From Nanobdellota archaeon (GTDB lineage Archaea; Nanobdellota; Nanobdellia; Pacearchaeales; GW2011-AR1): DNA of 64,000 nucleotides. Positions 2,174-63,076 of this stretch are shown in pieces (positions within the stretch are counted from its first letter, which is position 1; the number at the start of each line of letters is the position of its first letter). Under the pieces are notes generated by a model. That model saw only the letters and a list, made by a program, of their open reading frames with translations. It was not told where the DNA came from and searched no databases. The translations under genes were made by a program, and so were the position numbers. Location of the stretch: the NCBI GenBank assembly GCA_038045705.1, contig JBBSXO010000005.1:21136-85135 (forward strand), written 5' to 3'.

Positions 2174-2779
2174 ATGATAAGAGGAAGTCTAAATGTCAGA
2201 GCAGTTCAGCAAAAAGATAGTCTTCAAGGATTTATCAGAATAAATCACTTTTATAGGGGAAATCATAGAGTTAGTGGAATTTGCGGAGAATTTACAGCAT
2301 CTCAAAGATTTCAAGAGATAGATTATGGAAATGGTCTAGATAAACTATTTTTTTACGGTGATGAACGAGATTTAACAGCAAATTACAGAAACCAAGATAA
2401 AGCACGTTCGATTCAAAGAATATTTCATGTAATTTACAACCATAGAAATTCAGATGATGGTGGACAAATTGAATTTGGAGAAATTCCTGCGACAAGACTT
2501 GATTTAACTAGAGAACAAACTGATCTTATAAGAGATATTCTAAACTATACTTCTTCTTTTCTAAGAAATTCAACAAAAGTAAAGTATGTAAAGATGCCAG
2601 AAGAAGGAAGTTCTTTAAGAGCTATTAGAAGTAGTCTAAGTAGGATGTTTCCTCCAGGTGTGCTTAAATTAGTAGAAGATGCTGGTGGTTATTGGGATTT
2701 AACAGAATCAATTAGACTAAACACCGATAAGTTTCCAGATTTTCCTAAAAGTCTAATTAAAGCAAACAATATTTCATAA
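2174..2779 (+). CDS. Hypothetical protein
   Basis: 201-aa ORF preceded by a TTTATAAA box; no recognised motif. Confidence 0.6.
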   Translation: MIRGSLNVRAVQQKDSLQGFIRINHFYRGNHRVSGICGEFTASQRFQEIDYGNGLDKLFFYGDERDLTANYRNQDKARSIQRIFHVIYNHRNSDDGGQIEFGEIPATRLDLTREQTDLIRDILNYTSSFLRNSTKVKYVKMPEEGSSLRAIRSSLSRMFPPGVLKLVEDAGGYWDLTESIRLNTDKFPDFPKSLIKANNIS

Positions 2780-2789
2780 ACAATCTATT

Positions 2790-3458
2790 TTATTTCATTT
2801 CTTGGCTAATAACTGCGCCATGAGTCACTGAATTCAGTTTATCATAGAAATCTATCTGTAGTCCAGATGGAATATTCATTACAACTTGCAAATCTCCATT
2901 TCCAAGCCATTCTTCGCTTTCCTTATAATCTTTAAGCATACCATAAACTTGAGCACTATATCTAGCAGGTATTGTCAATTTAACTTTCTTAGTCTCTACT
3001 TTAATCGGAATTACTGTTGCTAGTTTAGTAATCAATTCAGGCATCTGTTGTTCTGCAGGTCTATTATCAAAATTAAAGTGCACTTCATGAATAGCTTTTC
3101 TTATGCGTTCATCAGTATAAGGTCTACCATGCTGATCTACAGCATTGCGTAAAATTAAATCAATTACTTGCTTTATCCTCTTCTCGCGTTCAGCATCCCT
3201 AAATTCTTGATCTTTTTGAATTTCTCCTTTAGTCATTATTTTTTCAGCTATTGCATAAACATCAGATGTATCAAAAGTAGCATCAAGTTCAGCCTTTGAA
3301 GCAACCATTCCTTTCTTTAAATCAGTATAAATAGCTGGAGAGTTCAAAGCAGTATTAACATTACCTTTTCCAGCTCTAACTTTAAGAGCCTCATCTAAAT
3401 CAACAGATATTTCAAACTGTTTACCTTTTACCTTAATGCGTGCTTCGACGTTTGCCAT
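2790..3458 (-). CDS. sdo1: Ribosome maturation factor SBDS/Sdo1
   Basis: ARIKVKGKQFEI, IYTDLKKG, IAEKIMTKGEIQ and FYDKLNSVTHG motifs; near psmA as in the conserved archaeal gene order. Confidence 0.92.
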   Translation of the reverse strand: MANVEARIKVKGKQFEISVDLDEALKVRAGKGNVNTALNSPAIYTDLKKGMVASKAELDATFDTSDVYAIAEKIMTKGEIQKDQEFRDAEREKRIKQVIDLILRNAVDQHGRPYTDERIRKAIHEVHFNFDNRPAEQQMPELITKLATVIPIKVETKKVKLTIPARYSAQVYGMLKDYKESEEWLGNGDLQVVMNIPSGLQIDFYDKLNSVTHGAVISQEMK

Positions 3459-3612
3459 AATCGGTAGGGTTTTATAGATTATTTAAAGATTTAGTTAAAA
3501 TGTTTTCTAAGTTGACCTATAACTAATATCAATATGATTCATCACCTAAGGCAAATATCAAAAATGGCGTGGTTTTCAGGAGACATCGAGACATAACAAA
3601 GTTTAAATATTA

Positions 3613-3651
3613 ATGTTAAATATAATTGACATATGTTAAATATAATTGACA
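3613..3651 (+). repeat. Tandem 19-bp direct repeat, quasi-palindromic, over the wHTH-MNT start
   Basis: ATGTTAAATATAATTGACA at 3613-3631 and 3633-3651. Confidence 0.85.
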
Positions 3652-4142
3652 ATCTAGAACTATTTTTTGAAGATTGTTATAGGAGGATCAATGTTCGAGA
3701 ATATGCTAGATTAATGAAAATTTCACCTCCGACCGCATCAAAGATACTTTCTGAACTCAATAGTCAAGGATTACTATCAATGGAGAAAGATAGAAACTAC
3801 ATTTTTTATTATGCTAATAGAATTGATAAAACATTCATAGATTTATCTAGGATTTATTGGAAAATTAAGCTGAATAGCTTTATTAATTATTTTGATAAAC
3901 ATTTTACAAACTATTCAATGATTCTTTTTGGATCTTTGTCTAAAGCTGAAGCAAAGAAAGATTCAGATATAGATGTATGCATAATTGGACATAGTAAAGA
4001 AGTTGATATTAGGAATTTTGAAATTAAGTTGAATAGAAAAATACAATTGTTCTTCTTTAGTTCATTAGAAAGCATAAAAAATAAAGAATTGGCAAACAAC
4101 ATAATAAATGGGTATATCTTACAAGGGAAATTGAAATTATAA
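3633..4142 (+). CDS. wHTH-fused minimal nucleotidyltransferase (MNT antitoxin)
   Basis: N-terminal HTH (VREYARLMKISPPTASKIL) and LFGS...DSDIDV MNT motif. Confidence 0.88.
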   Translation: MLNIIDNLELFFEDCYRRINVREYARLMKISPPTASKILSELNSQGLLSMEKDRNYIFYYANRIDKTFIDLSRIYWKIKLNSFINYFDKHFTNYSMILFGSLSKAEAKKDSDIDVCIIGHSKEVDIRNFEIKLNRKIQLFFFSSLESIKNKELANNIINGYILQGKLKL

Positions 4143-4549
4143 TGGATTTTAATGAGTGTCTCAAAAAGAGAATAGCTAAGAAAGTAGGCGAAGATAAAGA
4201 GCTTATTATTTCCCTTTTAAAAACAAGCCAGAATAAACTTAATTCTCAAAGGAAACTTGAACTAAATGAAGTAACTTCAAGCTCTAAGATATCCCTTTTG
4301 TATGATTCATTAAGAGAAATTTTAGAGGCTTTAGCCATTAAAAATGGATACAAAATATATAATCATGAATGTTATACTCATTTTCTAAAAGAAATCTTAA
4401 ATGAGAGCATTGATGGAGATGAATTTGATGAGTTGAGAAAGATAAGGAATGGTATAAATTATTATGCTAAAGATACTTCTACTGAAGAAGCAAAAGAAGT
4501 TTTAGAAAGAATACAGAAACTTAGAGAGAAAATCTTGAAGTTAATTTAA
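4142..4549 (+). CDS. HEPN-domain protein (putative toxin of an MNT-HEPN pair)
   Basis: Coupled to the MNT gene; helical protein with RKIRNGINY (RxxxxY variant of Rx4H). Confidence 0.75.
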   Translation: MDFNECLKKRIAKKVGEDKELIISLLKTSQNKLNSQRKLELNEVTSSSKISLLYDSLREILEALAIKNGYKIYNHECYTHFLKEILNESIDGDEFDELRKIRNGINYYAKDTSTEEAKEVLERIQKLREKILKLI

Positions 4550-4552
4550 CTA

Positions 4553-5155
4553 TTAAAATCGTTCCATATTTTCATATTCTTCTCTTATCTTGTCTGTCGT
4601 TCTTTTTATTACCATGAGGACTGCCTTATCGGCTGTATCACCTTCATAGTCAGTTTCTCTTGCTATATCATTCAATTTTCTCCCTTCAATAAATCGCATA
4701 TTTAATATTTTTCTTTTTTTAGGCGATAGTCTGGAAATAATCTGTAATATTTTTGATAATCTAACACTGTCATCTTCTTCCTGGATATATTTTGATAATC
4801 CAGAATCATCTTCTAACTCTCGCATTTGATTTGATTTTTCTTTAAAAGAATCTCCATCTTGATCTGTTTCTTGGCAGAAGCTACTTAATGTACTTTCTTT
4901 TTTTCTACGTCTATAATTTCTCTTAAAGCATCTTCCTAAATGTCTTAAAACGCAAACCCTCACATATCCTGGAAAAGAATCAATTCTTTTTAGGTCATAT
5001 CTACCTGCAACCCTCCAAAATTTTTCCAAAGCATCAGCTCTCATTTCTTCTGAATCATAGATAAATTCCAGAGGTCTTCTATTTCTTCTAAATTCATCAA
5101 TTATTCTATCCACTTCAAAGAGATTTTCTCTAAAGAGAGTCAAGTCATCTGTCAT
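4553..5155 (-). CDS. Sigma70/ECF-like protein (regions 2 and 4)
   Basis: EEMRADALEKFWRVAGRYD...SFPGYVRVCVLRHL resembles region 2; ISRLSPKKRKILNMRFIEGRKLNDIARE resembles region 4 HTH. Confidence 0.7.
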   Translation of the reverse strand: MTDDLTLFRENLFEVDRIIDEFRRNRRPLEFIYDSEEMRADALEKFWRVAGRYDLKRIDSFPGYVRVCVLRHLGRCFKRNYRRRKKESTLSSFCQETDQDGDSFKEKSNQMRELEDDSGLSKYIQEEDDSVRLSKILQIISRLSPKKRKILNMRFIEGRKLNDIARETDYEGDTADKAVLMVIKRTTDKIREEYENMERF

Positions 5156-5185
5156 TCAATTTTCAGAAATAATTAGTTTTTAAAA

Positions 5186-5911
5186 TTACTTAATATACTT
5201 ACGTAGTTCTTCACCATGTAATTTAACAAGTCTTCCTTCTTTAAGAGCAATCATCCCCACATCAAATCTTGAAATTTCAAAATTTTTACCAAGAATCTCT
5301 TTAAATATTTTCATCACAAACTTGATTCCCTCTTCCATACTCATGCTTTCACTTATGCCCTTACGTAATTCTTCCTTTACTTGTTCATCATTCTCTCCGA
5401 TAGAGTTAGCCTTGTAAGCAAAGAAGTTTCCAGTAATGTCTGATGTATACAAATGAGGCCTTCCTTTTGAAACACCAGCAATCATTATTGAAACACCATA
5501 AGGCCTAGAACCGCCATATTGAGTATATGCTTGTTTATTATCTGCAATCATTTGAATGACACTTATAGGATCAATAGGTGTTCCGTAAGAAACTCTGTGT
5601 TGTTGCGCTAATAATCTAGATCTATCAATAAGAACCCTAGCATCAGAAGCAATTCCAGCAGCAGTAGCCATTACATGGTCATCAACTTCAAAAACCTTAA
5701 CAGCAGATTCAGGAGCAATTAAATTATCTCTAATTCTCTTATCAGCAACAATTATTACACCATCTTTACATATAATTCCTACACTATTGCTTCCAAGTTT
5801 AACAGTTTTTTCAGCATATTCAACTTGAAGCAAATGTCCTTCAGGTGAGAACATTGTCGCAGCTCTGTCGTAACCCATTGCTTGATGTTGCATTTCTGTA
5901 GGCATATCCAT
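5186..5911 (-). CDS. psmA: Proteasome subunit alpha
   Basis: GYDRAATMFSPEGHLLQVEYA and YTQYGGSRPYGVS; ATG at 5911 preferred over the TTG at 5929. Confidence 0.96.
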   Translation of the reverse strand: MDMPTEMQHQAMGYDRAATMFSPEGHLLQVEYAEKTVKLGSNSVGIICKDGVIIVADKRIRDNLIAPESAVKVFEVDDHVMATAAGIASDARVLIDRSRLLAQQHRVSYGTPIDPISVIQMIADNKQAYTQYGGSRPYGVSIMIAGVSKGRPHLYTSDITGNFFAYKANSIGENDEQVKEELRKGISESMSMEEGIKFVMKIFKEILGKNFEISRFDVGMIALKEGRLVKLHGEELRKYIK

Positions 5912-6093
5912 TTTATTGTGTTTCTCCAAGGTTATATAAAATGGTTGCTAGAAAATAAACTTCCATTTTCTTTATATCCATTTTATTAGTAAAAACCTCT
6001 TAGATTTACTAATCTGCAGATATATGTCTATTTAAAATTTGCTATTTCTCTAAGGATTCTTTTCTCTTTCAAATAAAAATTATCTCCCAAAAT

Positions 6094-6363
6094 CTACTTT
6101 GAAAGTCCTTTCAAAGTCCCAGAAATTCTCAAAACAGTCAATTCATCTTTTGCAAGAGCAAATGCAGCCTTAATTTGATTAAGTGATTTTCTATTAACTG
6201 CAAGAATAACTTCATTTGAAACTTCGGAAACAAAAACGGGAGAAGCTTCAGCCCATCCTAAAACTCCTATAAATTCAAGAATCGCTTTTTCAACTGAACT
6301 CCTAAGTCCTCTAATAAGAAGATATCTTTTATTATCTCTTGCAGAAGGTTTTAGCTTAAGCAT
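6094..6363 (-). CDS. pop5: RNase P protein Pop5/Rpp14
   Basis: LKPSARDNKRYL and C-terminal ISGTLKGL; upstream of psmA. Confidence 0.85.
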   Translation of the reverse strand: MLKLKPSARDNKRYLLIRGLRSSVEKAILEFIGVLGWAEASPVFVSEVSNEVILAVNRKSLNQIKAAFALAKDELTVLRISGTLKGLSK

Positions 6364-6364
6364 T

Positions 6365-7183
6365 TTATATTATGTCCACACCAACTATCTCATTAGTTTT
6401 AACTCTTAACATATTACTTTCAAGAGCAAAACCTAAACCTTCAGCTTCCCCAACTTTAAAATTAGCCATTCCTATTACTCGTCCATCTTTGTCAACTAAA
6501 GGCCCACCAGAATTTCCAGGGTTTAAAGTAACATCAGTCTGAATATAAGATTGTAAACCATTAGGGCCTTCTCTATCTAATGCAGAAACAATTCCTTCAG
6601 TTACTGTAAATGAAAGTCCTAGGGGATTTCCAATTGCAATTGCTTTTTGACCTATAGAAACAGAATCAGAATCTGCAAGTTCAAAACTATTTATAGATCC
6701 AGAAATTCTCAAAACAGCCAAATCCGCCAAAACATCTGTTCCGACAATTTCGGCAACGTAAACTTCATCACTGTATGTTTGAACTTGTATAACTGCACTT
6801 CCCTCAATAACGTGATTGTTAGTTAAGATGTAGCTCCCATCAGAAACGGCAAATCCAGTTCCAGCAGAAATATCTGTAGTAACAGTAACTACTTTTTTTA
6901 ATGCTTCTTCAACAACAGCAGACAAGTCCTGTTGTGTAGACTTTAGTAAATCTATTTGAGTTTCAAAATCACTTCTTTGTTGAGATATTGTTCTAACAAT
7001 CTCTCCTATTCTATATTGGTTCTCTTGTCTTACACTACCCAAAAATCCTTTGATTTCTTCTTCAAAGTTATTTTGTTGAGCAATCAATTTAGCGGACTGT
7101 GAGCTAATAAATGTAAATGATACTAATTGAACAACAAGAAGCAAAATCACAGCCCCATATAAAACATTGATGTGGTGTTCCAT
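6365..7183 (-). CDS. Membrane-anchored HtrA-like trypsin serine protease without PDZ domain
   Basis: TNNHV, ADLAVL and NPGNSGGP catalytic triad; N-terminal TM and coiled coil. Confidence 0.9.
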   Translation of the reverse strand: MEHHINVLYGAVILLLVVQLVSFTFISSQSAKLIAQQNNFEEEIKGFLGSVRQENQYRIGEIVRTISQQRSDFETQIDLLKSTQQDLSAVVEEALKKVVTVTTDISAGTGFAVSDGSYILTNNHVIEGSAVIQVQTYSDEVYVAEIVGTDVLADLAVLRISGSINSFELADSDSVSIGQKAIAIGNPLGLSFTVTEGIVSALDREGPNGLQSYIQTDVTLNPGNSGGPLVDKDGRVIGMANFKVGEAEGLGFALESNMLRVKTNEIVGVDII

Positions 7184-50332: not shown

Positions 50333-50461
50333 TGCGGGAGGGAGGATTCGAACCTCCGAAGGCACTAAGCCACGAGATGGCTTACATCTCGCTTAGCTAC
50401 TCGCTCTAATGAGAGAGTGACGTCTTAAGTCTCGCGCATTTAACCGCTTTGCTACCCCCGC
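50333..50461 (-). tRNA. tRNA-Leu(TAA) with a 45-nt canonical-position intron (50379-50423)
   Basis: GCGGGGG/CTCCCGC acceptor, CGAGA/TCTCG anticodon stem, long variable arm, GGTTCGAATCC; bulge-helix-bulge CTTA-AGA / TAAG-CCA. Confidence 0.93.
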
Positions 50462-50617
50462 AATCGGCATATCTGTCCACTGCGCGGATTTCCCCGAGCA
50501 GTTCAGCTGATAGTATAAGAAGAGCAGAAGCGTTGCTGATGCTCATCTGTGACTGTCTGCTAACAGGCAAGACACACCGCAGGGGCAACACATGGAGGCT
50601 ATTTAACACTATCGAAC

Positions 50618-51820
50618 ATGCATGAGGTAAACAACACTGAGGACGAGAGAATACGACCAGTTGATGTAGTTGCGTCACTAGAGCGCGCGACCACTCGGTT
50701 TATGGCCAGGTCAGACATCAGTCAGGCCAACAAGGATCATGTCGCCAAGTTCTTGCGAGAAGCAGCACTTGGCAAGACCGTCGTGGGGCGCGCGAGAAAA
50801 CAGATCGGCCCGGAGCGACGCCATTTATACCTGATGCAACTGACTATTCTGATCGATTTCGTGGGAAAGAACCTCGACGAGGTTGTGATGTCCGATATGG
50901 AGAGGTTCGTTGAGGCTCTGGACGGCGACAAGATTCGTTCGCGCCGGCCACAGCGAAAGGGGCAGAAGCTGGTCGTGGAACCTAGGCCCTTGAGCAGGCG
51001 GTACTGCGCCGACATCAAGATCACCGTCCGAAAGTTTTACATGTGGCTCTGGGGTGGGAATCGGCGAGTGCCGGAACTCGTGGACTGGTTTGACACTTCC
51101 TTTGAACTAAAGGATGTGCCCGCGCTCACCGAGGCAGATGTTGGGCGCATGCTGGACCACTGCAGGACTGTGCAGCAGCGCGCGATCATTCAGGTCTTGT
51201 TCGACGGAGGACTGCGTCTGGGGGAGCTACTAAACGTTCGCCTACGGCATGTCTGGAGAAGAACGGTCGTGCCGAATGATCCAATGACGGTTTGTTATTT
51301 CGTGCGTGTGCCTTTCAGCAAGACTCTCCGTCGAACCGTCGTGCTCCCCATGCGCGACAGCACTCGTGCTCTCGGTCTGTGGCTCGAGAAACACCCCGGT
51401 CGACCAGTTGTGCTCCCCGACGGTACTCTCGACGCGGACGACTTGAGCCTGCAACTTTTCCCCATGACCGGAGAGGCGATCAGGCAGATGCTACGCAGAG
51501 TGGGTAAGTGTGCTCTCGGTCGCCGGGTGTATCCACATCTCATGCGCCACACCTCAGCCACATTCTGGAGCAACAAGGTTTCCTACTTCAAAATGTGCAA
51601 GCGCTTCGGTTGGACCATGGTCAGCAAGATGCCCCAGCGCTACATCGATCGAACTGGCGTTGATGAGGAGGAGATCGCCAACATCTATTTTGCCAAACAG
51701 AAGGGCGAGTCGCAACGAGGGGCAGACGAGCTTCTGATTGAAACGCCCGAGGTTCAGGCTGAGGTCAAGCCCGTCAAGGGATCGTTGCCGCGTCCGCAGT
51801 CCATGCGTTCCGCAAGCTAA
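50618..51820 (+). CDS. Tyrosine recombinase/integrase
   Basis: LFDGGLRLGELL (R), SKT (K), PHLMRH (HxxR), FGW and RY catalytic residues. Confidence 0.92.
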   Translation: MHEVNNTEDERIRPVDVVASLERATTRFMARSDISQANKDHVAKFLREAALGKTVVGRARKQIGPERRHLYLMQLTILIDFVGKNLDEVVMSDMERFVEALDGDKIRSRRPQRKGQKLVVEPRPLSRRYCADIKITVRKFYMWLWGGNRRVPELVDWFDTSFELKDVPALTEADVGRMLDHCRTVQQRAIIQVLFDGGLRLGELLNVRLRHVWRRTVVPNDPMTVCYFVRVPFSKTLRRTVVLPMRDSTRALGLWLEKHPGRPVVLPDGTLDADDLSLQLFPMTGEAIRQMLRRVGKCALGRRVYPHLMRHTSATFWSNKVSYFKMCKRFGWTMVSKMPQRYIDRTGVDEEEIANIYFAKQKGESQRGADELLIETPEVQAEVKPVKGSLPRPQSMRSAS

Positions 51821-52112
51821 GAACTGTGGCTAATGGTGCTGGCGGCCACTACCCAGTTGACTGAGAAATGCGGATCTGGTCAGTCTGCGTCGGCCTTTCT
51901 GGCGCAGCGGTGCTGGCGCATAGAGTGCCGCGTCGCGGCGCATGCGTGAGGTGACGTCGGTGCACGGAGGTTGTGACCGGCCAGCTGTTGCGTTGCACGG
52001 CCGATGACCTGAGTCGTGCGTTCTCGTTGCGCGTTCCGTGACGGGCGGTCGCGGCGCGCGCCAGCATTGGGATGTTCAAAGCCCGCCGGAAGAAGCGGGA
52101 AGGTGAGAGTTT

Positions 52113-52469
52113 TTAGGCAGTCTTTCGCGACAATCCAACAATCGACAGACACCCAACCAATCCAGCCAGAATCAACTCGCCGCGCCAGGTCATTAGGAGC
52201 CAGTTGCCAACGCAGCCACAGACGGCCGGCCGCACGACGATGGCGTGCCCTGTCCCTAAGAACGCAATCACGACCCCGACGAATAGCCCAAGGCGTCGAT
52301 ACCGACTCCAGCAAAGCAGCACGGCAGTTGCAGTTTCGAGAAGCGTGACTCCCCAATAAAGAGACTGTGAATACGAAACACCCACTGGGACACCGCCAAC
52401 AACTTTGGCGACGGCGACCGTGCCAAGCAATACCGCCAACACCAAAGGCACAACTATCCCTCTAGCCAT
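52113..52469 (-). CDS. MauE/DoxX-like membrane protein
   Basis: Several TMs with AVAK, LLE and CGCVG motifs; start MARGIVV at 52469 chosen to avoid overlap. Confidence 0.6.
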   Translation of the reverse strand: MARGIVVPLVLAVLLGTVAVAKVVGGVPVGVSYSQSLYWGVTLLETATAVLLCWSRYRRLGLFVGVVIAFLGTGHAIVVRPAVCGCVGNWLLMTWRGELILAGLVGCLSIVGLSRKTA

Positions 52470-52516
52470 AGCCTTACCATGGTTTGTTGTCCGACCGAGT
52501 CCACCGTTTGCTCCCG

Positions 52517-53119
52517 CTAGTCTATTGGCGGCATCGTTAGGGTGTAGCAGCTGAAATTGCAATCTCGGCAAATTGCCACAAGCTTCAGCTGGCACTCAGC
52601 TGCAGGTGGGCAAGCAGTGCCTACACAGGCAGCAAGGGAACGTGTCACTTTGCACTCACTCCATGTGTTGCACCCAGCTGCAGACGCCACAAGTGGGTCG
52701 CCGCTCTCTGTTGGCCCTACGAAGAACCCCCAGTCGGTACAAGTTGGGCCAGTGGTCGTACCGTCGAAGTTCCTTCTGGTATAGCAGTAGCTATCCGCGT
52801 GAGTAGTCGCATTTCCGCCACGGAACAATGGCATCGACACAGTCATTATGCAAGTAGGAGTCGACTCTATGCACTGGCGAAGTTCGTTCTCCTCTTCGCA
52901 AACACAATAACCGTCTCCAGTAGCATCAACCATGACGAAATCGTACAAGTCTCCGCCGTAGCAAGGCGGCGGGACGGCGCCAATGTCGGGTCCATAACCG
53001 TACTGCGGCTTGCACCCATACCACTCACAATCGGTATCGATCGGACTATCGACCGCCGCGCTTGCTGCGATCGAGAGAAACATTGGCACCAAGAAGACGC
53101 CGACGAACGATGAAGTCAT
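52517..53119 (-). CDS. Secreted Cys-rich protein
   Basis: Signal peptide and 17 Cys in the mature region. Confidence 0.65.
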   Translation of the reverse strand: MTSSFVGVFLVPMFLSIAASAAVDSPIDTDCEWYGCKPQYGYGPDIGAVPPPCYGGDLYDFVMVDATGDGYCVCEEENELRQCIESTPTCIMTVSMPLFRGGNATTHADSYCYTRRNFDGTTTGPTCTDWGFFVGPTESGDPLVASAAGCNTWSECKVTRSLAACVGTACPPAAECQLKLVAICRDCNFSCYTLTMPPID

Positions 53120-53143
53120 GAGAGAGTCCTTATTTCTTGTTGG

Positions 53144-53971
53144 TTACTTACCATCCCATGTAACGCGTCCCTGAATGTTGCTTAGTAGTTGTTTTGCTTC
53201 CTCAGACGTAATAGTGCCTTCACGACAGAACCATACTACAATCAAACCTAGCAGCTCTCGTCCCTTTTCATGCATTACCGCCTCTCCAAGTGAGCTTCCG
53301 GGCATCATATCGCGATTCGCCATATGCACTGTATCACCAATTGTCTGAATCATGTTGTAGCCACTAGCCTCTGGCGGCAACACGCCTGAGCGAAACCGTG
53401 TTCCGCGTGGCAGAGTGACGGTTGCAGTCCCGCTCTTAGCTCGGAGTTCGGCCATTTCCTTTGCGGCGATCTCATGTCGAACGCGCAAAATGTTTAGCAG
53501 CTCACGTTGCGGGCCACGGAGCAAACCCTCCAGCTCGCGCCTCTTGTCAGGGGGTAAGTAAACGTCGCGCGGGTTTAGCATTTCATGCCGGAACAGGCTA
53601 TTCGCTGTAACCGCTACTGCAGACGTGATGATATACCTAGTGAGAGGGTATCTCTGAACACGGATAGCCTGCCACTCCGCGTCCGATTCAGGACTCGGCG
53701 CATGCTCATTCGTACTCTGAGCATTTGGTTCGAAAGACTCTAAGCTGTCATAGTCTACTGTACTATTCGCGGAAGAGAGAACGGCGGTTGCAAGAGCTTC
53801 GGCATCGCCCGTACCTGACGTGGGCACGATTGCGTCTCCCGGAGTGACGACCAACGGCGTTGGCCGCGGTATTCTTGCAAGCCAGACACCAACAGCGATT
53901 CCTGAGAGCGCGACTAGCGCCAAAGCCCAGCGGTGCTTTTTCGAGGTAGCCAAGTTAACCTCTCGATGCAA
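53144..53971 (-). CDS. Hypothetical protein with N-terminal TM anchor
   Basis: 275-aa ORF, co-oriented with the Cys-rich and MauE-like genes. Confidence 0.6.
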   Translation of the reverse strand: MHREVNLATSKKHRWALALVALSGIAVGVWLARIPRPTPLVVTPGDAIVPTSGTGDAEALATAVLSSANSTVDYDSLESFEPNAQSTNEHAPSPESDAEWQAIRVQRYPLTRYIITSAVAVTANSLFRHEMLNPRDVYLPPDKRRELEGLLRGPQRELLNILRVRHEIAAKEMAELRAKSGTATVTLPRGTRFRSGVLPPEASGYNMIQTIGDTVHMANRDMMPGSSLGEAVMHEKGRELLGLIVVWFCREGTITSEEAKQLLSNIQGRVTWDGK

Positions 53972-54755
53972 GCTGGCCGTGAGCCAGCAGAAGAAGTCGA
54001 GTGGAGCAACTGCAAGAGACGGTAACGGGTGTTGCGCTAGAAGTCAATAGAGAAGCAGAATCTTGCAGCTAGCAACCGGGTCTGGATCTCACCCTGGAAC
54101 AAGCGACCGAGCTTGCTGCCACCGGCAGTGGTGGCCGCGAGTGGCCGCGGTGACATGTTGTTAATTTGCTACTTGTACAAGACATCGCCTCTCCGTAACG
54201 GATGGAGGATGCTCATCCCAGTATTCGAGGAGAGGCGGGCCGCAGCTCTGGAAGCCGCGGAACGTAGGAAGCCCCGTCGGGTGATTCACGCAACCTCACC
54301 GGAAGGACACGATCCAGGGCCGCCTCGTACCAGGCCGCCAGTTCCTCGCGCCGCGCTGGGCGCTCGCCAAGTTCGATTCTTCGCATGGCGACACCTGCCC
54401 GCCTCAGCGGCGCGATCCAGGAACAGCGGCTCACCCATGCCTGGCAGACGACCCTGTTCCACGGCAACCACACCCATGCCGAACCGGTGGACAAACCGCC
54501 CCGTCCAAAGGAGCCCAGCAGCAACGTTCGCCAGCAATACCACGAGAAGTGATCGGAGCGTTCTCCCACACCATACGAGCTTCCATCCCGAAAAGCGAAG
54601 TACTGGTAGCTCAAGCCTTGAGCGCCGAGATACGCGACGGTATCGAACGGAGATCTTGAGATACGTGCAACCAATCGCGACGGCTACAGACACAGCTAAT
54701 GGGCAACCTACTGGCACTTCCATACGAGTCCTTCCTTGCGTTCGGTTGCCACTAT

Positions 54756-55094
54756 CTAGAGCGTATAGACCAGTCTTGGTCTGGAGTCCGCAGGATCGCA
54801 GACAGCTTCATACAAGTAGATGACTGGTTGCCGGTTGGCATCGAGTATCTGATACCTACGAAGTTGCGGTGGCAGGTCCTGACGGCGAATACGTCGACCA
54901 TCGTGTTCGAGCGATTTGAGTGCAGTGGCCACAGCAGACAGCGACTCCCCCAGCGCTACGCTGATTTGACATGTGGACTGAGGACCCTCATCGAGTAAAT
55001 ACGCCACCACACGATCCTCCAACGCTCCTACGTCGTGGATAGAAGGGGAGTCCCCGCCATAAAGCCCGCCTATGCTCATGTCTGTTCTCAACAC
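54756..55094 (-). CDS. Small winged-helix protein
   Basis: RVVAYLLDEGPQSTCQISVALGESLSAVATALKSLEHDG. Confidence 0.5.
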   Translation of the reverse strand: MLRTDMSIGGLYGGDSPSIHDVGALEDRVVAYLLDEGPQSTCQISVALGESLSAVATALKSLEHDGRRIRRQDLPPQLRRYQILDANRQPVIYLYEAVCDPADSRPRLVYTL

Positions 55095-55484
55095 CTGAGA
55101 GATTAAGAAGGTGCGCCACTACTACCTTGTAGTGCCTGGATTCTATTTATCCAATTTTCGTTTGAGTCAGTCTTTGGGAGTAAGCTCGACAACCCTCGAA
55201 AACGGGAAGAACGTTATCAATCTAAACGACCCGAGTTTGGCAAGCAACCACAATTCTCGATTGAGCCATGACGACCATCGGTATGGCAGCTACTTGTGAA
55301 CACCGTCAGCGTGGCCAATGGTATTATCATCGAGGTAGGAATCCTCCTGCACCGGCGAACGACTGGGTCGCGCACCCCGGGTCCCTTCTTCGCCAGCTTT
55401 TGCCAAGTGAACTCCATCGTCGAGCTGAACGGCCTGAACGAGAACCGTACTCCGTAGGCCACATGGGAACGGCATTGGCGACTT

Positions 55485-56150
55485 TCACTTTGGCGGTGGC
55501 ACAGTTTGACCAAAGGTAAGTGAATCGATCCCAAGGAGTTTGCGGGAGAACTCCTCCTGAATCGCTGCATGAGTCCTTCTCCTCGTTCTCTCAAACAATG
55601 CGAGAAGTGTTGGTGCAACCGTGTGTGTTGGCACCACCTGAGTGGACTCCATGGTCTCAAGCGGTCCTCGCCATGACTGTCGGACGGCAAGTAGCTCCAA
55701 GTCTTCGGCCACAACAATCCCAAGGCCAAGAAGATTGCTACGTACATTAGTGAATGCGTCCCAAACGGCGGCTTCGATCCTTAGCCAGTCGTTGGCGTTG
55801 CGATCATCTTCTCCGCGGACCCTGGATAGGAGTTGATCACGGGTGCTACTCGTCACTCCGGAATACGTGTCAGCGTTTTCCATGGCCTTCGCAAGCCAAC
55901 TGTCGATTTCGAATCTCCTTTTGATCGTCCCTTGAAGCGTAATCGTCTCCGCCCTCGCAGCTTCCTGTTCGAGGTTCGCGCTGATGCATGCTGCGGCCGT
56001 AAACCCGACCATGGCGACCAAGGTAGCCCATCCCTTTCCATTCAGCTTGTACCTGGTTTTACCATCGTAGCGCCGTATTTGCGTCTTGCAAGTTAGCCAC
56101 TCGGCTGCGAGGCCACAGAGAGCTACGGCGATTACGAAAACCACAGTCAC
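55485..56150 (-). CDS. Hypothetical protein with two N-terminal TMs
   Basis: Two hydrophobic segments followed by a helical domain. Confidence 0.55.
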   Translation of the reverse strand: MTVVFVIAVALCGLAAEWLTCKTQIRRYDGKTRYKLNGKGWATLVAMVGFTAAACISANLEQEAARAETITLQGTIKRRFEIDSWLAKAMENADTYSGVTSSTRDQLLSRVRGEDDRNANDWLRIEAAVWDAFTNVRSNLLGLGIVVAEDLELLAVRQSWRGPLETMESTQVVPTHTVAPTLLALFERTRRRTHAAIQEEFSRKLLGIDSLTFGQTVPPPK

Positions 56151-56355
56151 ATTTACTGCTCCGAGTTAGCTGTACTAGTTCACTGCAGGCATGTAGAGTC
56201 TTGAGGTCCAACACAAGTAAATGCTCACTGCCCTATGTCTGGAGGTAAACCGCCACACGACGATGGCGCTCCTGGTATCGGTTCAGGGGACGCTGGGGAA
56301 CGCTTTAGCTGACTCCCAAGCGCGCAATATTCTAACCAACGAAGGTTGAAGCCGG

Positions 56356-57345
56356 CTAGCGTATGATCGTGGCTTGGCTTGATGCGATACCCATCGCAAA
56401 CAATGGTGAGAACGTAATGCACTGTGTTACGGCTGACAGTCCCGAAGCTGGCCCTGAATACGTGACTGGAAGTCCGGCCACACCTCCTGTGAAGAATAGG
56501 AGCGGATCGTTGACGTCGAAGTTCACCAAGATACCTGGAAGGCTTGGGGAGTTTGGGACAGCGGGACGAAAGCTCACCGCGACGAAGTGTAACGCTTGGG
56601 CGTCATTAGAATTGATCATAATTGTGGCAACTCCAATCCCGGGAACGGTGGCTAGGCAATACGCAGATCCGATGGCTCCGTTTACGTAGAGACGTGCCTC
56701 GGGCTTGTTCTCCTGGTAACTTGGCAATAGTCCACCGGTTACCCTGACAGTGTACTCCTCGATGTCACCGAAGAAAGAACCGGACGGTGGTGGAGGCCCA
56801 GGGTGACCGAACCCAACCCTTATGCGAGTCTCCGCAACGGCATTGCTAGGAACTCGAATACTTGCGCTGAAGAACACGACCTGGTTGACGCTCACGAGGT
56901 TCAAGTCGTAGCGCTCACCAGCGTCGTCGAAGTACCGATTGCCATTCCAATCGACGTACGCCCGTGCTTGTCCGATGAGCCCATTGTTGAAGACACCAAG
57001 GGTTAGGAGCACTGTCTGGCAGGGAACCACTATAGCTGTCTGGTTAAGGAAGCTTGAGAAGCCAGAAAACCCCGGTGGACACAGGGGGCTGGGTATCGTT
57101 GTGTCATTCACGACACTAGCGAAAGACACCAAGTTTACGTACGAGCGAAGAAACCCAAGATGACACACGTCACCTACCGTTGTCGGATAGGCCTCCAGGT
57201 TGGTATTGACGCAGAGGTTGACCGTGGGGCACTGGGTTATGAGCGGCCGGCTGAATGGGATTACCATCAGCAAAAACAACACGCGTGAAGACATCGCCAT
57301 GGGACGTGTGGTATGAGTTGGTAGTGTGGTTCGAGGTGGTCGCAT
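56356..57345 (-). CDS. Secreted GEVED-domain protein
   Basis: AYVDWNGNRYFDDAGE...TRIRV...GDIEEYTV matches the GEVED pattern. Confidence 0.7.
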   Translation of the reverse strand: MRPPRTTLPTHTTRPMAMSSRVLFLLMVIPFSRPLITQCPTVNLCVNTNLEAYPTTVGDVCHLGFLRSYVNLVSFASVVNDTTIPSPLCPPGFSGFSSFLNQTAIVVPCQTVLLTLGVFNNGLIGQARAYVDWNGNRYFDDAGERYDLNLVSVNQVVFFSASIRVPSNAVAETRIRVGFGHPGPPPPSGSFFGDIEEYTVRVTGGLLPSYQENKPEARLYVNGAIGSAYCLATVPGIGVATIMINSNDAQALHFVAVSFRPAVPNSPSLPGILVNFDVNDPLLFFTGGVAGLPVTYSGPASGLSAVTQCITFSPLFAMGIASSQATIIR

Positions 57346-57490
57346 GCGTCAGTGCCGAGTCAGCATTCGCATGAGTTCCGAATTCACAAAGTAGCGGCTG
57401 ATTGAATGTTTCTGACACAAACTGCTGGATCAATACGGATACTGCCTCTGTGGTTTCATGATTGATGGCTTTCTTGACTGAATGCCTATT

Positions 57491-58360
57491 CTATTCTAGA
57501 AACTCAAGCGCTTCCTTCAACAGTTTTGCGACCTTGTCCTTCTCGATCTGGGGGGCGTCCTTTGTAATCGAGAACGGATAGACACGCAGACCATCCTTGC
57601 TCTTCTTGATGTAGAGCTTCTTGCGACCAGGTTGCCGCTTGCCTGCCTCCTGACGGAGGACACGCTTCAACTGCTTAGCGCTGAGAGTCTCCGACTCGAT
57701 ACGCTTCTTCCACTCCGAAGGACTCTCGACGCCAAAGTCGTGCAGCGCCTTGGCGTGCGCCATCGTGACGATCTTGCCGTCGAGGCATTTCTGTAGCGCG
57801 CTCGAGAAGCTCAACAGCTCCAGATAGCGATCAACCTGCTTTTGGGAGAGGCCGAAGAGTTCCTGGAGATCGTTCTTCTTCAGACCCTGCCTTTGCGCCA
57901 ACCAGAGGGCATTGGCTCTATCCACCGGTGCCAGATTCTTGCGCACGACATTCTTCGTGAACGCGACCCGAAGCGCCTGGTTGTCGGCCATCTCGTGCAC
58001 GACAGCCTGAATCGAGGACCAGCCCAGTTCCTGCGCGGCCCTGCAGCGTCTGAAGCCATCGATGATCCGATACGGCTTCGGGCCGAGGAGATCGACGGGT
58101 TGCTCGAGTCCATCGTGCTCCAGGCTGCGCCGCACATCTGCAACGGCCATGGAAACGCGGCACTGAAACGTCGTGTTCGACGAGTCGATGTCTGCAAGGC
58201 TGATGGTCTGGTAGGCACCATCGAGTGCTTTGGGAGGCGTGATGCGTTCCTCCAACTTCGACGCTCCATCGCTTGATGTGTCTACGGCATGCCGGCGCCG
58301 GTCGGCTCTGCGTTTCGGCCCGGCATCAGAGTCTCCTTCGGGTTGCATTCCGCTCTCCAT
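57491..58360 (-). CDS. ParB/Spo0J-like protein
   Basis: SLEHDGLEQPV, YRIIDGFRRCRAA..LGW, NVVRKNL, then HTH. Confidence 0.85.
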   Translation of the reverse strand: MESGMQPEGDSDAGPKRRADRRRHAVDTSSDGASKLEERITPPKALDGAYQTISLADIDSSNTTFQCRVSMAVADVRRSLEHDGLEQPVDLLGPKPYRIIDGFRRCRAAQELGWSSIQAVVHEMADNQALRVAFTKNVVRKNLAPVDRANALWLAQRQGLKKNDLQELFGLSQKQVDRYLELLSFSSALQKCLDGKIVTMAHAKALHDFGVESPSEWKKRIESETLSAKQLKRVLRQEAGKRQPGRKKLYIKKSKDGLRVYPFSITKDAPQIEKDKVAKLLKEALEFLE

Positions 58361-58679
58361 GCGTAGTCTCCACCGGGGATGGCGTGATGTCGGACACCGT
58401 GTCTTCCAGACCCTTACTCTAGTGCTGGTGGCAGCTTAGCGACGGCGCACCCCGAAATCCGTTGCTCTGGCTTCCACTACAACGCGCAGGCAGCCGACTT
58501 ATGTATCCCTGGGGGTAGCGACTGTCAACAACGTTCTTTGCCCGACAGGGCGCATGACAAGACACAAGTGTCTGGGTCCGCGCATGGGACACACGACAGG
58601 CATGGAACTACAGTCTGCTTGGCCGGCCAGTTGATCGTCGACGACCTTCGGCCCGCAGCAGCTCAGCCCCGACGATCTT

Positions 58680-59030
58680 TGGAGGAGATCCACGTCAAGA
58701 CGCTCGACCGCGACGACGAGGTCAAGGCCGCGATCATCCTGTTCTTGAGCATGCTCCATGAGAAGCAGCGGCGGCTTGGTTTGCACCCCGAGTGTCGCAT
58801 CCAGCTCGGTCGCGAGAACGCCGGCGTCCGCAAAGGCAAGGTCGACCACGAGTTGGTCGCCGACGCCCTCGAACGGTGGCACCTCGCATGACGGGGCACC
58901 CCCCGCCGCGATGCGACGTCGAGCCGCTGCGCTAGATCCTGCATCGCACGCTCCCTTGCTGGAACTACACCATCTCACCGGCGATCGCTTCGGCATGATC
59001 GCGCGAAGTAGTTCTTGGTCTGCCCCCTGA
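58680..59030 (+). pseudogene. Internally deleted ISAzo13-like transposase remnant
   Basis: DEVKAAIILFLSMLHEKQRRL and, in another frame, HRTLPCWNYTISP resemble the two ends of ISAzo13-type transposases (from recall). Confidence 0.45.
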
Positions 59031-59133
59031 CAGCTGACAGATGGGAAGACTGTTGGAGCTGACGGCCCCGCGCGGTAGCCTCTGCTCAACCCCTCCGAGA
59101 AGCACCAACAAGAAGCGAGGTCAGAGGGTTATT

Positions 59134-60135
59134 GTGACGTTACTTGGAACGCAACTCGACGATGGCTGGGTGGTGACCCGGGAAGTGGTGAGGAGCATCA
59201 AAGCTACCGGCGGGTGCTTCTCTAAGTCCTACATCGTGACGAGGAACGGGAAGGAAGCGTTCATGAAGGCGTTAGACTATATGCAGGCTCTGCAAAGCGT
59301 AGACCCGGCGACGCTCTTGCATACGCTGACCCAAGAGTTTCTTTTTGAGAAAGGTATTCTACGAGAGTGCGAGGCTCGTCGGATGCGAAGAGTAGTTCGG
59401 CAGATTGGTCACGGGATCCTGAAGCTCACACTTGGTGGCTTACCAATCACGGTGCAGTACTTGATACTTGAGAAGGCTGACGACGATCTGCGGCATACCC
59501 TGGACGGAATGACCGCCTCCGTAAGGGCGCGGGCGTTGCAGCAGGTTGCGATTGGGTTGACGCAGTTGCACAGAATTGGTGTCGCGCATCAGGACATCAA
59601 GCCATCCAATGTACTCCTATTTCGAGGAGACGGTGCAAAGGTTGGTGATCTTGGGTGCGCGTTTCAGAAAGGCATCGCACGTGTTCGCGACCAATACAGA
59701 GTAGCGGGCGATCCGCGATATGCACCTCCAGAATTATTGTATGGGTTAGGGTCCCAGGACTATCGGTTGCGAAGACTGGGCTGTGACGCGTACCATTTGG
59801 GTAGTCTAATATTTTTAATGTGGTCGAAGCTGTCGCTGACTAGCGATATTCAAGGCCGCCTCGAACCAAGATTCAGGTGGCAAAAATGGAACGGTCAATA
59901 CGTGGACGTGCTTCCTGAGTTGCAGTCGGCGTTCGAGGATGCTCTCCGCTCATTCGCGACGTTACTACCACCATACGCTTTGGAGTTGGTAGAGTTTGTG
60001 CGTGAGTTGTGCGACCCGGACCCAATGCGACGTAAACTTACGCAGAGTGGCAGCGACATCCCCTTGGAAGTGTACGTTAGCAAGCTTGACAGAGTGGCAA
60101 AGGTCTGCGAGTGGAGGGAGCGCAAGGGTCCATGA
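59134..60135 (+). CDS. Hanks-type Ser/Thr protein kinase
   Basis: TGGCFSKSY, AFMKALD, HQDIKPSN, DLG and YAPPE motifs; GTG at 59134 with upstream GAGGG preferred over 59041. Confidence 0.9.
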   Translation: MTLLGTQLDDGWVVTREVVRSIKATGGCFSKSYIVTRNGKEAFMKALDYMQALQSVDPATLLHTLTQEFLFEKGILRECEARRMRRVVRQIGHGILKLTLGGLPITVQYLILEKADDDLRHTLDGMTASVRARALQQVAIGLTQLHRIGVAHQDIKPSNVLLFRGDGAKVGDLGCAFQKGIARVRDQYRVAGDPRYAPPELLYGLGSQDYRLRRLGCDAYHLGSLIFLMWSKLSLTSDIQGRLEPRFRWQKWNGQYVDVLPELQSAFEDALRSFATLLPPYALELVEFVRELCDPDPMRRKLTQSGSDIPLEVYVSKLDRVAKVCEWRERKGP

Positions 60136-61625: not shown

Positions 61626-62073
61626 GGCTGCGAGATTCGTGGCGCCGTAGTTATCGTGCGCCGCGTTCCTTGAGACGGGGGCGCGCCATTCCCCGTGAGC
61701 CTCGGGGAACACCTCAAGTCCGGCCAGTCGGGAACACCTGAAAACCGGCCAGTGGTGAGAGTGGTCGCGGACGTTGACGTCGCCTGGCACATGGTGTCGC
61801 TCTGTGACCTTCCGGTGAGGGTGCGTAGCCCGTTTTTTCTGAGCGTTGCGGTCAGCGGTTGGGCTAGGACGAGGGCGTGGTTGCGACCGCGGCCAGCTTG
61901 TAGTTCCAGGGCAGCCAGGCCGGAGTCGATTTGGCGCTGCGGCGCGGCTTGTCCCGATCGATACGCTTCGTTACTCTTCGTCTGAGTCGGTCGCGCTGGC
62001 CCGACTCTGCACCTCTCTCATTCTCATCGGCTCGACCGCCCAGCGCGGTCTTACCCAAAAACCAATAGGACAA

Positions 62074-62994
62074 ATGCAACCAAACAACGTTCGTGAATAC
62101 GAGAACCTCCGTTCAGAACTCGACAAACTTCGCGACTGTATCAACACATATGTTAGCTTTGTCTTGGGGGGATCAGGAGCGGCCTTGGTTGGATTGCTCG
62201 CAGCCATAGGACTGAAAGAGGCCTGGTTTGGAGTATGCCTCGGCGCGCTGGCACTGGCATTGGTGATCACAATTATTCAGAATGTCCTTATGTACAAGTT
62301 CCTCAGCCACAATCGTTATGCTGGATATTGCAAATTGCTATCACAAGAATGGTATGAGGCGAAATCCTTGGACGTTTTCCTTTGGGAGCCCTCCCTAGAG
62401 CAGCTCCGCTATTCTGATTTTGACAACACAGAGGCTGTCGATCGCTGTCGAACAACGGTCATAAAGGGTGTCTCTGGCAGGGCTCTATCGCGCGCGCTTC
62501 TTCGTTTCGGAGGCGACGAACCATCCGCGGACAAGAAGAAGCGACGGCGCGGAGCATGGATAGTATTTTGGGCAATTAGGGGGCATACAACGTCCGCTTC
62601 CTGGGGGTACCCTGTGTACGTAGTTGCGACCTTGTTTATTGTAACGCTACTATTCTGGGCAGTCCATGCCGCGTTCGCCTTCATGTCCTTACAATGGTAT
62701 CTTGGCGTATTACTGCTCTTCTTAAGTGCAGTCCTGGTAGGCATGATGTGGGCGACGCACTTCGGACGGCTTTCTGCCCTTATGGGTCGGAGCAGATCCA
62801 TAGATGCTTACTGTTGGAAGTTCATGTATTTCCGTTTTGCTATCCTTACGTCCCTTGGCGCACGCTCGTACACAATCGTCGCTGGCAAACAACCTTGGCA
62901 GTACCTGCACGCCTATCGCGCAGACAGGCGGTGGATAAGGCAGAGTCTAGCATACAAACTTCGCAACTATCCAGGGCGAGTGCGGCCACGATAG
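62074..62994 (+). CDS. Four-TM membrane protein
   Basis: AGGA-N3-ATG start; EYENLRSEL helix, then two TM hairpins separated by a soluble region. Confidence 0.7.
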   Translation: MQPNNVREYENLRSELDKLRDCINTYVSFVLGGSGAALVGLLAAIGLKEAWFGVCLGALALALVITIIQNVLMYKFLSHNRYAGYCKLLSQEWYEAKSLDVFLWEPSLEQLRYSDFDNTEAVDRCRTTVIKGVSGRALSRALLRFGGDEPSADKKKRRRGAWIVFWAIRGHTTSASWGYPVYVVATLFIVTLLFWAVHAAFAFMSLQWYLGVLLLFLSAVLVGMMWATHFGRLSALMGRSRSIDAYCWKFMYFRFAILTSLGARSYTIVAGKQPWQYLHAYRADRRWIRQSLAYKLRNYPGRVRPR

Positions 62995-63076
62995 CAAATC
63001 GCTCGGGCTGATTTATGAATTGGAAGAGAAGGGCGGACAGACCGTAACGGCGTCGTAAAGTCCTTCACGCCCGACT

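Follow-up and report, generated by a model that had tools for sequence, protein, structure and literature searches.

Transcription initiation in bacteria is defined by sigma factors, whereas archaea use TBP and TFB. Sigma factors in archaea were reportedly already mentioned in a single-cell genomics paper of 2013. Genes of the sigma-70 class (fam00359) were described in DPANN archaea, especially Woesearchaeota, by Castelle et al. in 2021; in the passage of that paper that deals with the family, mis-binning is ruled out, no anti-sigma factors are found, and the mechanism is called unclear (PMC8204110). In the literature that we searched, we found no functional study of any DPANN sigma-like protein. 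Here we describe a sigma-like gene of a Nanobdellota archaeon, located between psmA and SBDS on the minus strand, at positions 4553–5155 of a 64,000-nucleotide stretch of contig C5 (the whole of which we refer to as the window). It reads as 200 uninterrupted codons from an ATG start, with 0 internal stops. The genome comprises 844 kb in 10 contigs, with completeness and contamination estimated at approximately 91.5% and 0.45%, respectively.

Our analyses indicate that the product is very probably an intact, highly diverged two-domain protein of the sigma-70 family, in which a predicted sigma-2 domain is coupled to a predicted sigma-4 domain. Its start codon is sound, as the N terminus aligns from residue 1 with that of the nearest relative. 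NCBIfam model TIGR02937 (sigma70-ECF, for extracytoplasmic function) matched the protein at E 3.5e-10, with 39.8 bits where the cut-off is 42.9, pairing residues 17–171 with positions 16–146 of the 165 in the profile and spanning both region 2 and region 4. Pfam Sigma70_r4_2 matched at E 2.4e-5 and 24.3 bits (cut-off 25.7) over residues 135–168 only, the start of region 4, and Sigma70_r4 reached 19.5 bits (cut-off 24.1). Sigma factors of solved structure were reached by profiles only: a search of solved structures with the single sequence returned one chance match, a terpene synthase at E 0.013. A profile of the protein and 18 DPANN or metagenomic relatives matched both domains of solved ECF sigma factors (SigW, 4.6e-25; AlgU, 4.3e-24; sigmaE, 2.6e-22), whereas the profile of its own four-sequence subfamily found its best matches among group 3 sigma factors (WhiG, 8.9e-9; FliA, 3.2e-6 over query residues 46–183). 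Because the wider profile favours the former and the subfamily profile the latter, we leave the sigma group open and refer to the protein as ECF-like by architecture. The gene has a guanine-plus-cytosine (GC) content of 0.317, and of 0.209 at third codon positions (GC3), against a GC3 of 0.13–0.23 in neighbouring genes and a GC content of 0.313 over the AT-rich positions 1–50000 of the window.

The domain assignment draws on a structural model. An AlphaFold 2 (AF2) prediction built on a 19-row alignment had a mean predicted local distance difference test score (pLDDT) of 87.7, with helical domains at residues 1–90 and 119–200 (helices at 4–88 and 104–199) and a low-confidence linker at residues 97–118 (pLDDT 49–60 over residues 91–120). 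In this model, residues 2–81 superimpose on the N-terminal domain of SigE (8b3z_C) with a Z score of 10.9 and a root-mean-square deviation (rmsd) of 1.6 Å over 74 of 74 residues; the domain likewise fits region 2 of sigma70 (1sig_A; Z 10.0, 1.5 Å over 72) and 3ugo_A (Z 9.2, 1.5 Å over 72), and its best match outside the sigma factors has a Z of 7.5 and an rmsd of 3.5 Å. At the other end of the predicted chain, residues 118–200 match the sigma-4 domain of SigL (3hug_A; Z 10.5, 2.8 Å, 79 of 80 residues), and residues 127–199 match region 4 of sigmaE bound to −35 DNA (2h27_D; Z 9.8, 1.7 Å, 69 of 69). The model lacks a sigma-3 domain and region 1.1, and a short acidic linker (residues 93–118, 26 in all; pI 4.05) joins sigma-2 to sigma-4. 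All 50 entries listed by Foldseek against the PDB were sigma factors; their E-values of 4.8e-3 or weaker are poor since the relative placement of the two domains varies from structure to structure. A structure search independent of Foldseek, which aligned all 48,161 representative chains and served as a control for the promiscuity of helical bundles, placed sigma factors or a sigma-2-based scaffold at ranks 1–28. GerE-type chains matched residues 138–200 only, at Z 7.8–8.2, below the sigma-4 matches; assignment of the whole protein to the LuxR/GerE-type stand-alone helix-turn-helix (HTH) class was considered and set aside, the N-terminal domain being modelled as a sigma-2 fold. An earlier note, made from the letters of the window, had read region-2-like and region-4-like segments in ECF spacing and a composition matching the AT-rich host, and the span of the TIGR02937 alignment, the AF2 fold matches and the GC values uphold both statements. 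The structure prediction that it had proposed returned confident sigma-2 and sigma-4 domains, and the outcome that it had feared, a generic HTH with no sigma-2 fold, is not what the model contains.

The machinery that such a protein would meet in its own cell is archaeal. The genome encodes TBP, TFB and a single set of polymerase genes, comprising one Rpb1-type, one Rpb2-type and one RpoD/alpha-type subunit, and no bacterial core was found in this 91.5%-complete genome. On the archaeal A' model NF006336 (cut-off 819), the large subunit reaches 1002.5 bits. The archaeal TBP/TFB context asserted by the earlier note is thus genuine. A classical sigma role in the organism's own cell is excluded, because the genome encodes an archaeal RNA polymerase only.

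The spacer between the psmA stop codon and the ATG of the sigma-like gene measures 30 bp and opens with the TATA-like box TTTTAAAAA, at exactly −30. In a survey of the 46 non-overlapping open reading frames (ORFs) of at least 120 amino acids in the AT-rich 50 kb, counted in 5-nucleotide bins ahead of the ATG, TATA-like hexamers started 26 times at −30 to −26 and 0–4 times in every other bin, a fixed position that suggests mostly leaderless mRNAs. A box at the same distance precedes the paralogue at L001, SBDS and the MNT gene described below, and none is present at a GC-rich sigma gene at 63.3 kb. Judged by this pattern, with its TATA-like box at −30 from the ATG, the gene appears to be arranged for expression from a host-type promoter.

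A plausible docking site exists on the archaeal enzyme. Bacterial sigma-2 docks on the clamp helices of beta-prime; their archaeal homologue is the clamp coiled-coil of Rpo1N, which is the seat of TFE and Spt5. Residues ~217–263 of the host A' subunit are nearly invariant in 25 genomes of the order. We propose that the sigma-2 domain of the protein would dock on this coiled-coil, that sigma-4 would touch DNA or a further protein, and that the whole may regulate the polymerase of the archaeon in an accessory role. Co-folding with archaeal Rpo1, a check named in the earlier note, was performed in ESMFold2 with residues 1–400 of Rpo1N (25-row alignment), residues 1–95 of the protein (19-row alignment) and three controls. 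It gave scores of 0.44, 0.44 and 0.36 against 0.08 for the best control, which the tool rates as "weak support"; the runs share at least 66% of their contacts with a partner pLDDT of at least 73, and no interface is given.

Several observations weigh against this reading. Every curated sequence model scores the protein below its cut-off, TIGR02937 and Sigma70_r4_2 included, and Pfam Sigma70_r2 does not match it even at E ≤ 1; of the HMM (hidden Markov model) comparison that the earlier note had suggested, the region 4 half came close to threshold and the region 2 half failed. No orthologue was found at E ≤ 1e-3 in any of 40 relatives, 16 congeners among them, and across 200 genomes of the order the subfamily profile returned weak partial matches (26–40 bits) in 10, with none in the 5 of the genus. 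Work on E. coli sigma-70 points to conserved residues of regions 2.2–2.4 that serve core binding and −10 recognition. The "D-x-x-Q-E"-type stretch of the ECF consensus, important for core binding in bacterial sigma factors, reads R-A-D, R-S-D or Y-A-D in all four subfamily members (alignments A2 and A3); where the ECF consensus has "aeDvvqda", the protein has S-E-E-M-R-A-D-A, all four members having A or S in place of the glutamine; an F and a Y of the following loop and helix are retained. The turn of its HTH is acidic and exceeds that of two of its three relatives by 3–4 residues, and the HTH segment at residues 161–199 is net negative (pI 4.5; 7 K+R versus 11 D+E). The acidic inserted loop and the negative charge of the HTH argue against canonical −35-type DNA binding, as far as residue composition can tell. 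Finally, on the calibration of the tool itself the co-fold counts as a weak pass: the pass mark is reached by 116 of 157 solved complexes and by 2 of 215 mismatched pairs, and passes at 0.60 or under comprise only 18 of the 157 solved complexes together with both passing mismatches. The predicted contact shows likeness, not binding, and may reflect memory, given that complexes of sigma-2 with the clamp helices are among solved structures.

An adjacent cognate anti-sigma factor is typical of ECF sigma factors, if not strictly defining. None lies beside this gene, whose neighbours are psmA and an MNT/HEPN-like pair, and no membrane protein or zinc-binding anti-sigma domain adjoins it.

Weighing these points, we consider docking on the polymerase the most likely single mechanism, a doubtful one in its own right, followed by stand-alone DNA binding and then by conflict cargo of a virus or mobile element. 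The whole explanation, in which a diverged sigma-like gene that arrived recently and carries a host-type promoter box serves as an accessory regulator of the archaeal polymerase, we hold tentatively, as a serious possibility lying somewhat short of probable. What the analysis shows is the gene with its predicted fold, its insertion and its promoter-like box, together with the paralogues and the one archaeal polymerase. We infer that the gene is expressed, that its product would bind the polymerase and that it may have a regulatory effect.

The alternative that survives best is a stand-alone DNA-binding regulator, in which the sigma-4 HTH would bind an operator unaided, in the manner of LuxR/GerE-type proteins, and the sigma-2 domain would serve folding, dimerisation or auto-inhibition, with no contact to RNA polymerase. 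Regulation in archaea is mostly carried out by stand-alone HTH proteins, and sigma-4 is the part of the protein best conserved by sequence (by its Sigma70_r4_2 match). Its predicted fold also matches HTH regulators, including an archaeal transcription factor (8hno_A, Z 8.2), DesR (Z 8.1) and EsrB (Z 7.8), and a congener (G006) encodes, in the neighbouring pop5–psmA gap, a 138-amino-acid protein with a Sigma70_r4 domain only (E 5.4e-10). Against this, the HTH is net acidic and has an acidic loop inserted in its turn; the complete sigma-2 domain, which in the model lies within approximately 1.5 Å rmsd of bacterial sigma-2, would be superfluous for a pure DNA binder; and the co-fold with the archaeal clamp, weak pass that it is, stands well over its controls. 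We regard such a regulator as unlikely.

We next consider how the gene came to its present site. On the minus strand, the window reads HtrA-like protease, pop5, psmA and the sigma-like gene, followed on the plus strand by the HEPN-like and MNT genes, convergent with it, and then by SBDS. The flanks of the locus are archaeal (psmA, pop5, SBDS and RNase J); the pop5 match, at E 1.3e-4 and 22.4 bits, falls slightly below the 23-bit cut-off. Twenty-three relatives had a psmA match, and ten loci were compared, eight from the same genus and two from other families. In all ten, psmA is followed directly by SBDS across a gap of 15–579 bp, where the archaeon described here has 1727 bp, and pop5 lies upstream of psmA in nine. 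The earlier note's contention that a conserved pop5–psmA–SBDS order is interrupted at this point is borne out. None of the ten gaps between psmA and SBDS holds a remnant of the sigma, MNT or HEPN-like gene below E 0.1. A contig of a co-occurring relative joins position 3458 to position 5249, with 511 other bases replacing 1790.

Contigs from public sequencing runs are in line with the insertion. Eight public runs were found for the locus, no RNA run being listed among them, and identical sequence occurs in contigs of four runs from two studies, some of which are possibly the source sample. Single run contigs span the locus without a difference (X1, positions 2700–6400, from SBDS through pop5; X3, positions 3248–6400), and no variant contig of at least 80% identity over the sigma-like gene was present in the four runs. 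Because the junction is intact in all ten relatives, remnants are lacking, and the relative's contig carries other bases, the 1.7-kb block is a recent strain-specific insertion into a variable gap, in which the sigma-like gene arrived alone or together with the MNT/HEPN-like pair. No integrase, repeat or other mobile-element gene was seen in it.

Both gaps flanking psmA (5930–6093 and 3459–5185 in the window) are variable across the genus and hold differing small ORFs of 110–138 amino acids, mostly without a family match. Among ten of these that we scanned, one, the G006 protein, contains Pfam Sigma70_r4 and the other nine no sigma domain; two are related to one another and the rest are unrelated, and none resembles the sigma-like protein described here (blastp, E ≤ 0.01; A3 profile, E ≤ 10).

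Relatives of the protein are few. An exhaustive phmmer search of 1.84 billion representative proteins gave five matches, namely a 48-amino-acid fragment of the protein itself and four distant relatives of 37, 31, 27 and 25% identity; a word-indexed search of 5.8 billion proteins returned, among 93 candidates, the protein itself only, and the subfamily profile retrieved 5 proteins among 2725 candidates. Nothing was found for the protein in metagenome contigs. For its distant relative P0003, genome contigs yielded nothing and metagenome contigs one unusable 25-residue match. In several relatives of the order (loci L010, L012, L016 and L018–L020), on short contigs that are presumably archaeal, longer open frames of 294–363 amino acids score 58–108 bits on the ECF model and may be larger sigma types or fusions; two of them lie in tandem in genome G029. 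Counted above its cut-off, TIGR02937 occurs in 17 of 41 genomes of the order (G000 included); we use these counts since looser ones (E ≤ 1e-5 or 0.01) are unreliable, the same search matching 3–4 control archaea.

The earlier note had called the gene an old acquisition from bacteria, and this does not hold for the copy in hand. As it was found in none of 16 congeners and the junction is empty of sigma genes and remnants in all ten relatives compared, the copy at the psmA–SBDS site is young, and we can point to no bacterial donor. The word "old" may apply to the sigma-like family in DPANN archaea, considering its presence in 17 of 41 genomes. Likewise, the possibility raised there of a decaying singleton proved right in one half: the gene is a singleton among the genomes searched, and it shows no sign of decay.

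Other sigma-like genes of the same genome shed light on this isolation. Four further copies lie in AT-rich DNA, 10–22% identical to the protein, one on contig C3, one on C2 and a tandem pair also on C2, and two more lie in GC-rich DNA. The tandem pair (183 and 169 amino acids; L006:808–1938) is directly downstream of the EF-1alpha gene on the same strand, ~10 kb from the rpoB and rpoA' genes, and two congeners have a single sigma-like gene at that position. There (locus B), the sigma-like proteins are 29–33% identical between congeners versus 95% for EF-1alpha. Beside a threonyl-tRNA-synthetase-like gene (locus A), those of the host and four congeners are 21–27% identical versus 78–83% for the flanks, and those of two closer congeners 58% versus 86%. 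Over both loci together, the sigma-like proteins are 21–33% identical and the flanking genes 72–95%. Among three congeners with well-aligned copies, positional orthologues of a paralogue have a ratio of nonsynonymous to synonymous substitution (dN/dS) of 0.25–0.31 (dN 0.22–0.28, dS 0.87–1.03), with a dN ~3 times that of the flanking gene. The substitution pattern suggests that the sigma-like family is kept by selection and yet either changes at several times the pace of adjacent genes or is exchanged at the same positions; in either case, a member such as the one described here may therefore look like an orphan.

The same pace bears on a further explanation, that the gene is cargo of a virus or mobile element, dropped together with a toxin–antitoxin or defence pair, and acts in genetic conflict by taking over or blocking transcription, or else is a stranded passenger. 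Sigma-like genes at 21–33% identity between flanks at 72–95% display a pattern typical of conflict genes; the gene is specific to the strain, lies in a gap whose small genes differ from one congener to the next, and adjoins the MNT/HEPN-like pair, a match to the PADLOC candidate defence system PDC-M05. Among ESM Atlas clusters, those nearest by language-model features, a lead only since no alignment is involved, are small and sigma-like, several of them recorded as 81–100% viral. DPANN viruses moreover carry diverged rpoS-like genes, one of them in a prophage, according to an excerpt of a 2025 report (PMC12647753). The lack of mobile-element genes in the 1.7-kb block speaks against this origin, as do the host-like composition and promoter box of the gene, and relatives are absent from viral collections: none was found in the viral contigs of IMG/VR for the protein, P0003, P0004 or P0005, nor by tblastn of the protein against 50,697 phage records. 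A label of "phage-type sigma" from PHROGs was tried and dropped. Family phrog_1740 matches the protein at E 8.2e-12 over residues 4–198, and it also matched each of the 11 sigma-like proteins scanned (the protein, three subfamily relatives, four AT-rich paralogues, the GC-rich copy and two congeners' genes), which makes its match unspecific as a sign of viral origin. Taken together, we find cargo of this kind rather improbable.

That the gene is functionless and on its way out, a recent arrival whose frame is open only for lack of time to break, strikes us as very unlikely. Such a fate would suit a singleton with no orthologue in 40 relatives and four distant relatives among 1.84 billion representatives, with scores below curated cut-offs and an atypical HTH. 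It sits poorly with 200 uninterrupted codons in a 31% GC genome where stops arise easily, with the confident prediction of both domains, with a promoter-like box at the host's canonical distance, and with purifying selection on family members in congeners.

Action on the RNA polymerase of a bacterial partner after transfer, one of two uses that the earlier note had envisaged, is highly improbable. Its appeal lies in a predicted fold that is that of proteins binding bacterial core polymerase and in the habit of DPANN archaea, which are thought to live attached to other cells; the known hosts, however, are other archaea, according to the abstract of the 2021 paper (PMC8204110). By our reading the protein has neither a signal peptide nor a membrane segment, and no secretion or export genes adjoin it. 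Its counterpart of the bacterial core-binding motif is altered.

A bacterial contaminant or assembly artefact, which the 52–59% GC of the same contig beyond 50.3 kb and the bacterial-looking ECF sigma gene there might invite, since part of the contig or bin may be foreign, is extremely unlikely, as the gene is flanked by archaeal psmA and SBDS, whose GC3 it shares, at a distance of 45 kb from that junction, single contigs of two runs (X1 and X3) cover the stretch without a difference, and the estimated contamination of the genome is 0.45%.

Coordinates of the remaining features are collected in Table 1. The HEPN-like gene and the sigma-like gene converge with stop codons 3 bp apart. The MNT gene also matches MntA_antitoxin at E 6e-6, below the cut-off of that model. 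Its partner has no Pfam HEPN or NCBIfam match; at the site of the R-x4-6-H motif, which we take to be expected in a HEPN partner, it reads R-K-I-R-N-G-I-N-Y-Y. Of the MNT–HEPN pair announced in the earlier note, the MNT member is therefore secure by its NTP_transf_2 match and the HEPN member is recognised by the PDC-M05B model only. The ATG at 5911, not the TTG at 5929, is the probable start of psmA, judged by the −30 box rule and by comparison with aligned relatives.

Table 1. Features of the psmA–SBDS interval in the window
Feature	Position	Strand	Basis
SBDS, downstream flank	2790..3458	-	SBDS_N E 3.8e-18, domain II and C-terminal domain
Strain-specific block of 1727 bp between SBDS and psmA (MNT, HEPN-like partner, sigma-like gene)	3459..5185		gaps of relatives, run contigs
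Winged helix-turn-helix (wHTH)-MNT nucleotidyltransferase	3633..4142	+	NTP_transf_2 E 4.4e-8; PADLOC PDC-M05A E 7.3e-16
HEPN-like partner of MNT, overlapping it	4142..4549	+	PADLOC PDC-M05B E 3.1e-8
Sigma-70-family gene (ECF-like, two-domain), 200 amino acids	4553..5155	-	ORF, TIGR02937, AF2, fold matches
Predicted sigma-4-like domain, residues 119–200, with acidic 3–4 residue insertion in HTH turn	4556..4801	-	3hug_A, 2h27_D, alignment
Predicted acidic disordered linker, residues 93–118, in place of sigma-3 domain	4802..4879	-	pLDDT 49–60, pI 4.05
Predicted sigma-2-like domain, residues 1–92	4880..5155	-	superposition on 8b3z_C, 1sig_A
TATA-like box TTTTAAAAA, −30 to −22 from ATG, directly after psmA stop	5177..5185	-	sequence pattern
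psmA (proteasome alpha subunit), upstream flank	5186..5929	-	Proteasome E 1.6e-49; 69–90% identity in 15 congeners

The far end of the window differs in composition. The GC content rises from ~0.30 to 0.52–0.59 exactly at a tRNA-Glu(CTC) gene (50333–50406, minus strand) and remains elevated as far as the contig runs (window 50333–64000). This block opens with a tyrosine recombinase (50618–51820; XerA-like, E 1.9e-13), encodes ParB-like, Ser/Thr-kinase-like and tetratricopeptide-repeat proteins by our reading of the translations, and carries an ECF sigma gene (63274–63765) whose Sigma70_r2 match of 26.8 bits is above cut-off. It borders the 5' end of the tRNA gene, an unusual side for an integrated element, and a search for a second attachment site returned only other tRNA-like matches. 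Another locus of the bin (contig C6, L004) likewise has 60% GC. Either the block is foreign DNA that integrated as an element, or the join is chimeric.

Compared with known systems, the protein described here most resembles in build the bacterial group 4 (ECF) sigma factors (sigmaE, 1or7/2h27; SigW, 5wuq; SigL and SigH of M. tuberculosis), with which it shares sigma-2 and sigma-4 domains in ~200 amino acids and no sigma-3 domain or region 1.1; in the model, the likeness amounts to 1.6–1.9 Å rmsd versus SigE for sigma-2 and to 1.7 Å (2h27_D) to 2.8 Å (3hug_A) versus sigmaE and SigL for sigma-4. It departs from them in having no bacterial core in its genome and no anti-sigma partner, an altered D-x-x-Q-E position, an acidic HTH loop and a score under the family cut-off. 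Sigma-28-type factors of group 3 (FliA, WhiG, SigF) are the best match of the subfamily profile, and the motifs of two of the three relatives resemble the region 4.2 pattern of that group; unlike these factors, the protein has no sigma-3 domain and, in its place, a predicted disordered linker of 26 residues. Small sigma-like proteins of tailed viruses (phrog_1740, phrog_351 and viral ESM Atlas clusters) and, as far as the excerpt of that report goes, the rpoS-like genes of DPANN viruses (PMC12647753) have a similar size and two-domain build; no sequence relative of the protein is found in the viral collections searched.

The closest precedent is fam00359. Like its members as portrayed in the cited passage, the gene is of the sigma-70 class, lies on a genuine DPANN chromosome that also encodes TBP, TFB and an archaeal polymerase, and has no adjacent anti-sigma factor (PMC8204110). 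Unlike them, it is far more diverged, scoring under the cut-offs, and has no orthologue in 16 congeners; the insertion between psmA and SBDS, the archaeal promoter box, the acidic HTH insertion and the fast-evolving positional orthologues do not feature in the main-text passage on that family (PMC8204110). It is conceivable, if quite improbable to our minds, that DPANN sigma-like proteins in general dock on the Rpo1N clamp and add to the TBP/TFB-driven polymerase a bacterial-style layer of swappable selectivity or of blocking, their arms-race pace reflecting conflict with viruses or with the host cell. Were the contact between sigma-2 and the Rpo1N clamp real, the result would be a hybrid of the initiation systems of two domains of life. 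Sigma-70 genes in DPANN archaea have been known since 2021, and the present gene is a fast-evolving, strain-specific addition to them. The copy adds little alone; what it contributes to the comparison is an insertion site seen cleanly both with and without its insert, a promoter box of archaeal type on the gene, five paralogues in 844 kb, positional orthologues that diverge several times faster than their neighbours under purifying selection, and one concrete testable contact, that of the sigma-2 domain on the Rpo1N clamp coiled-coil.

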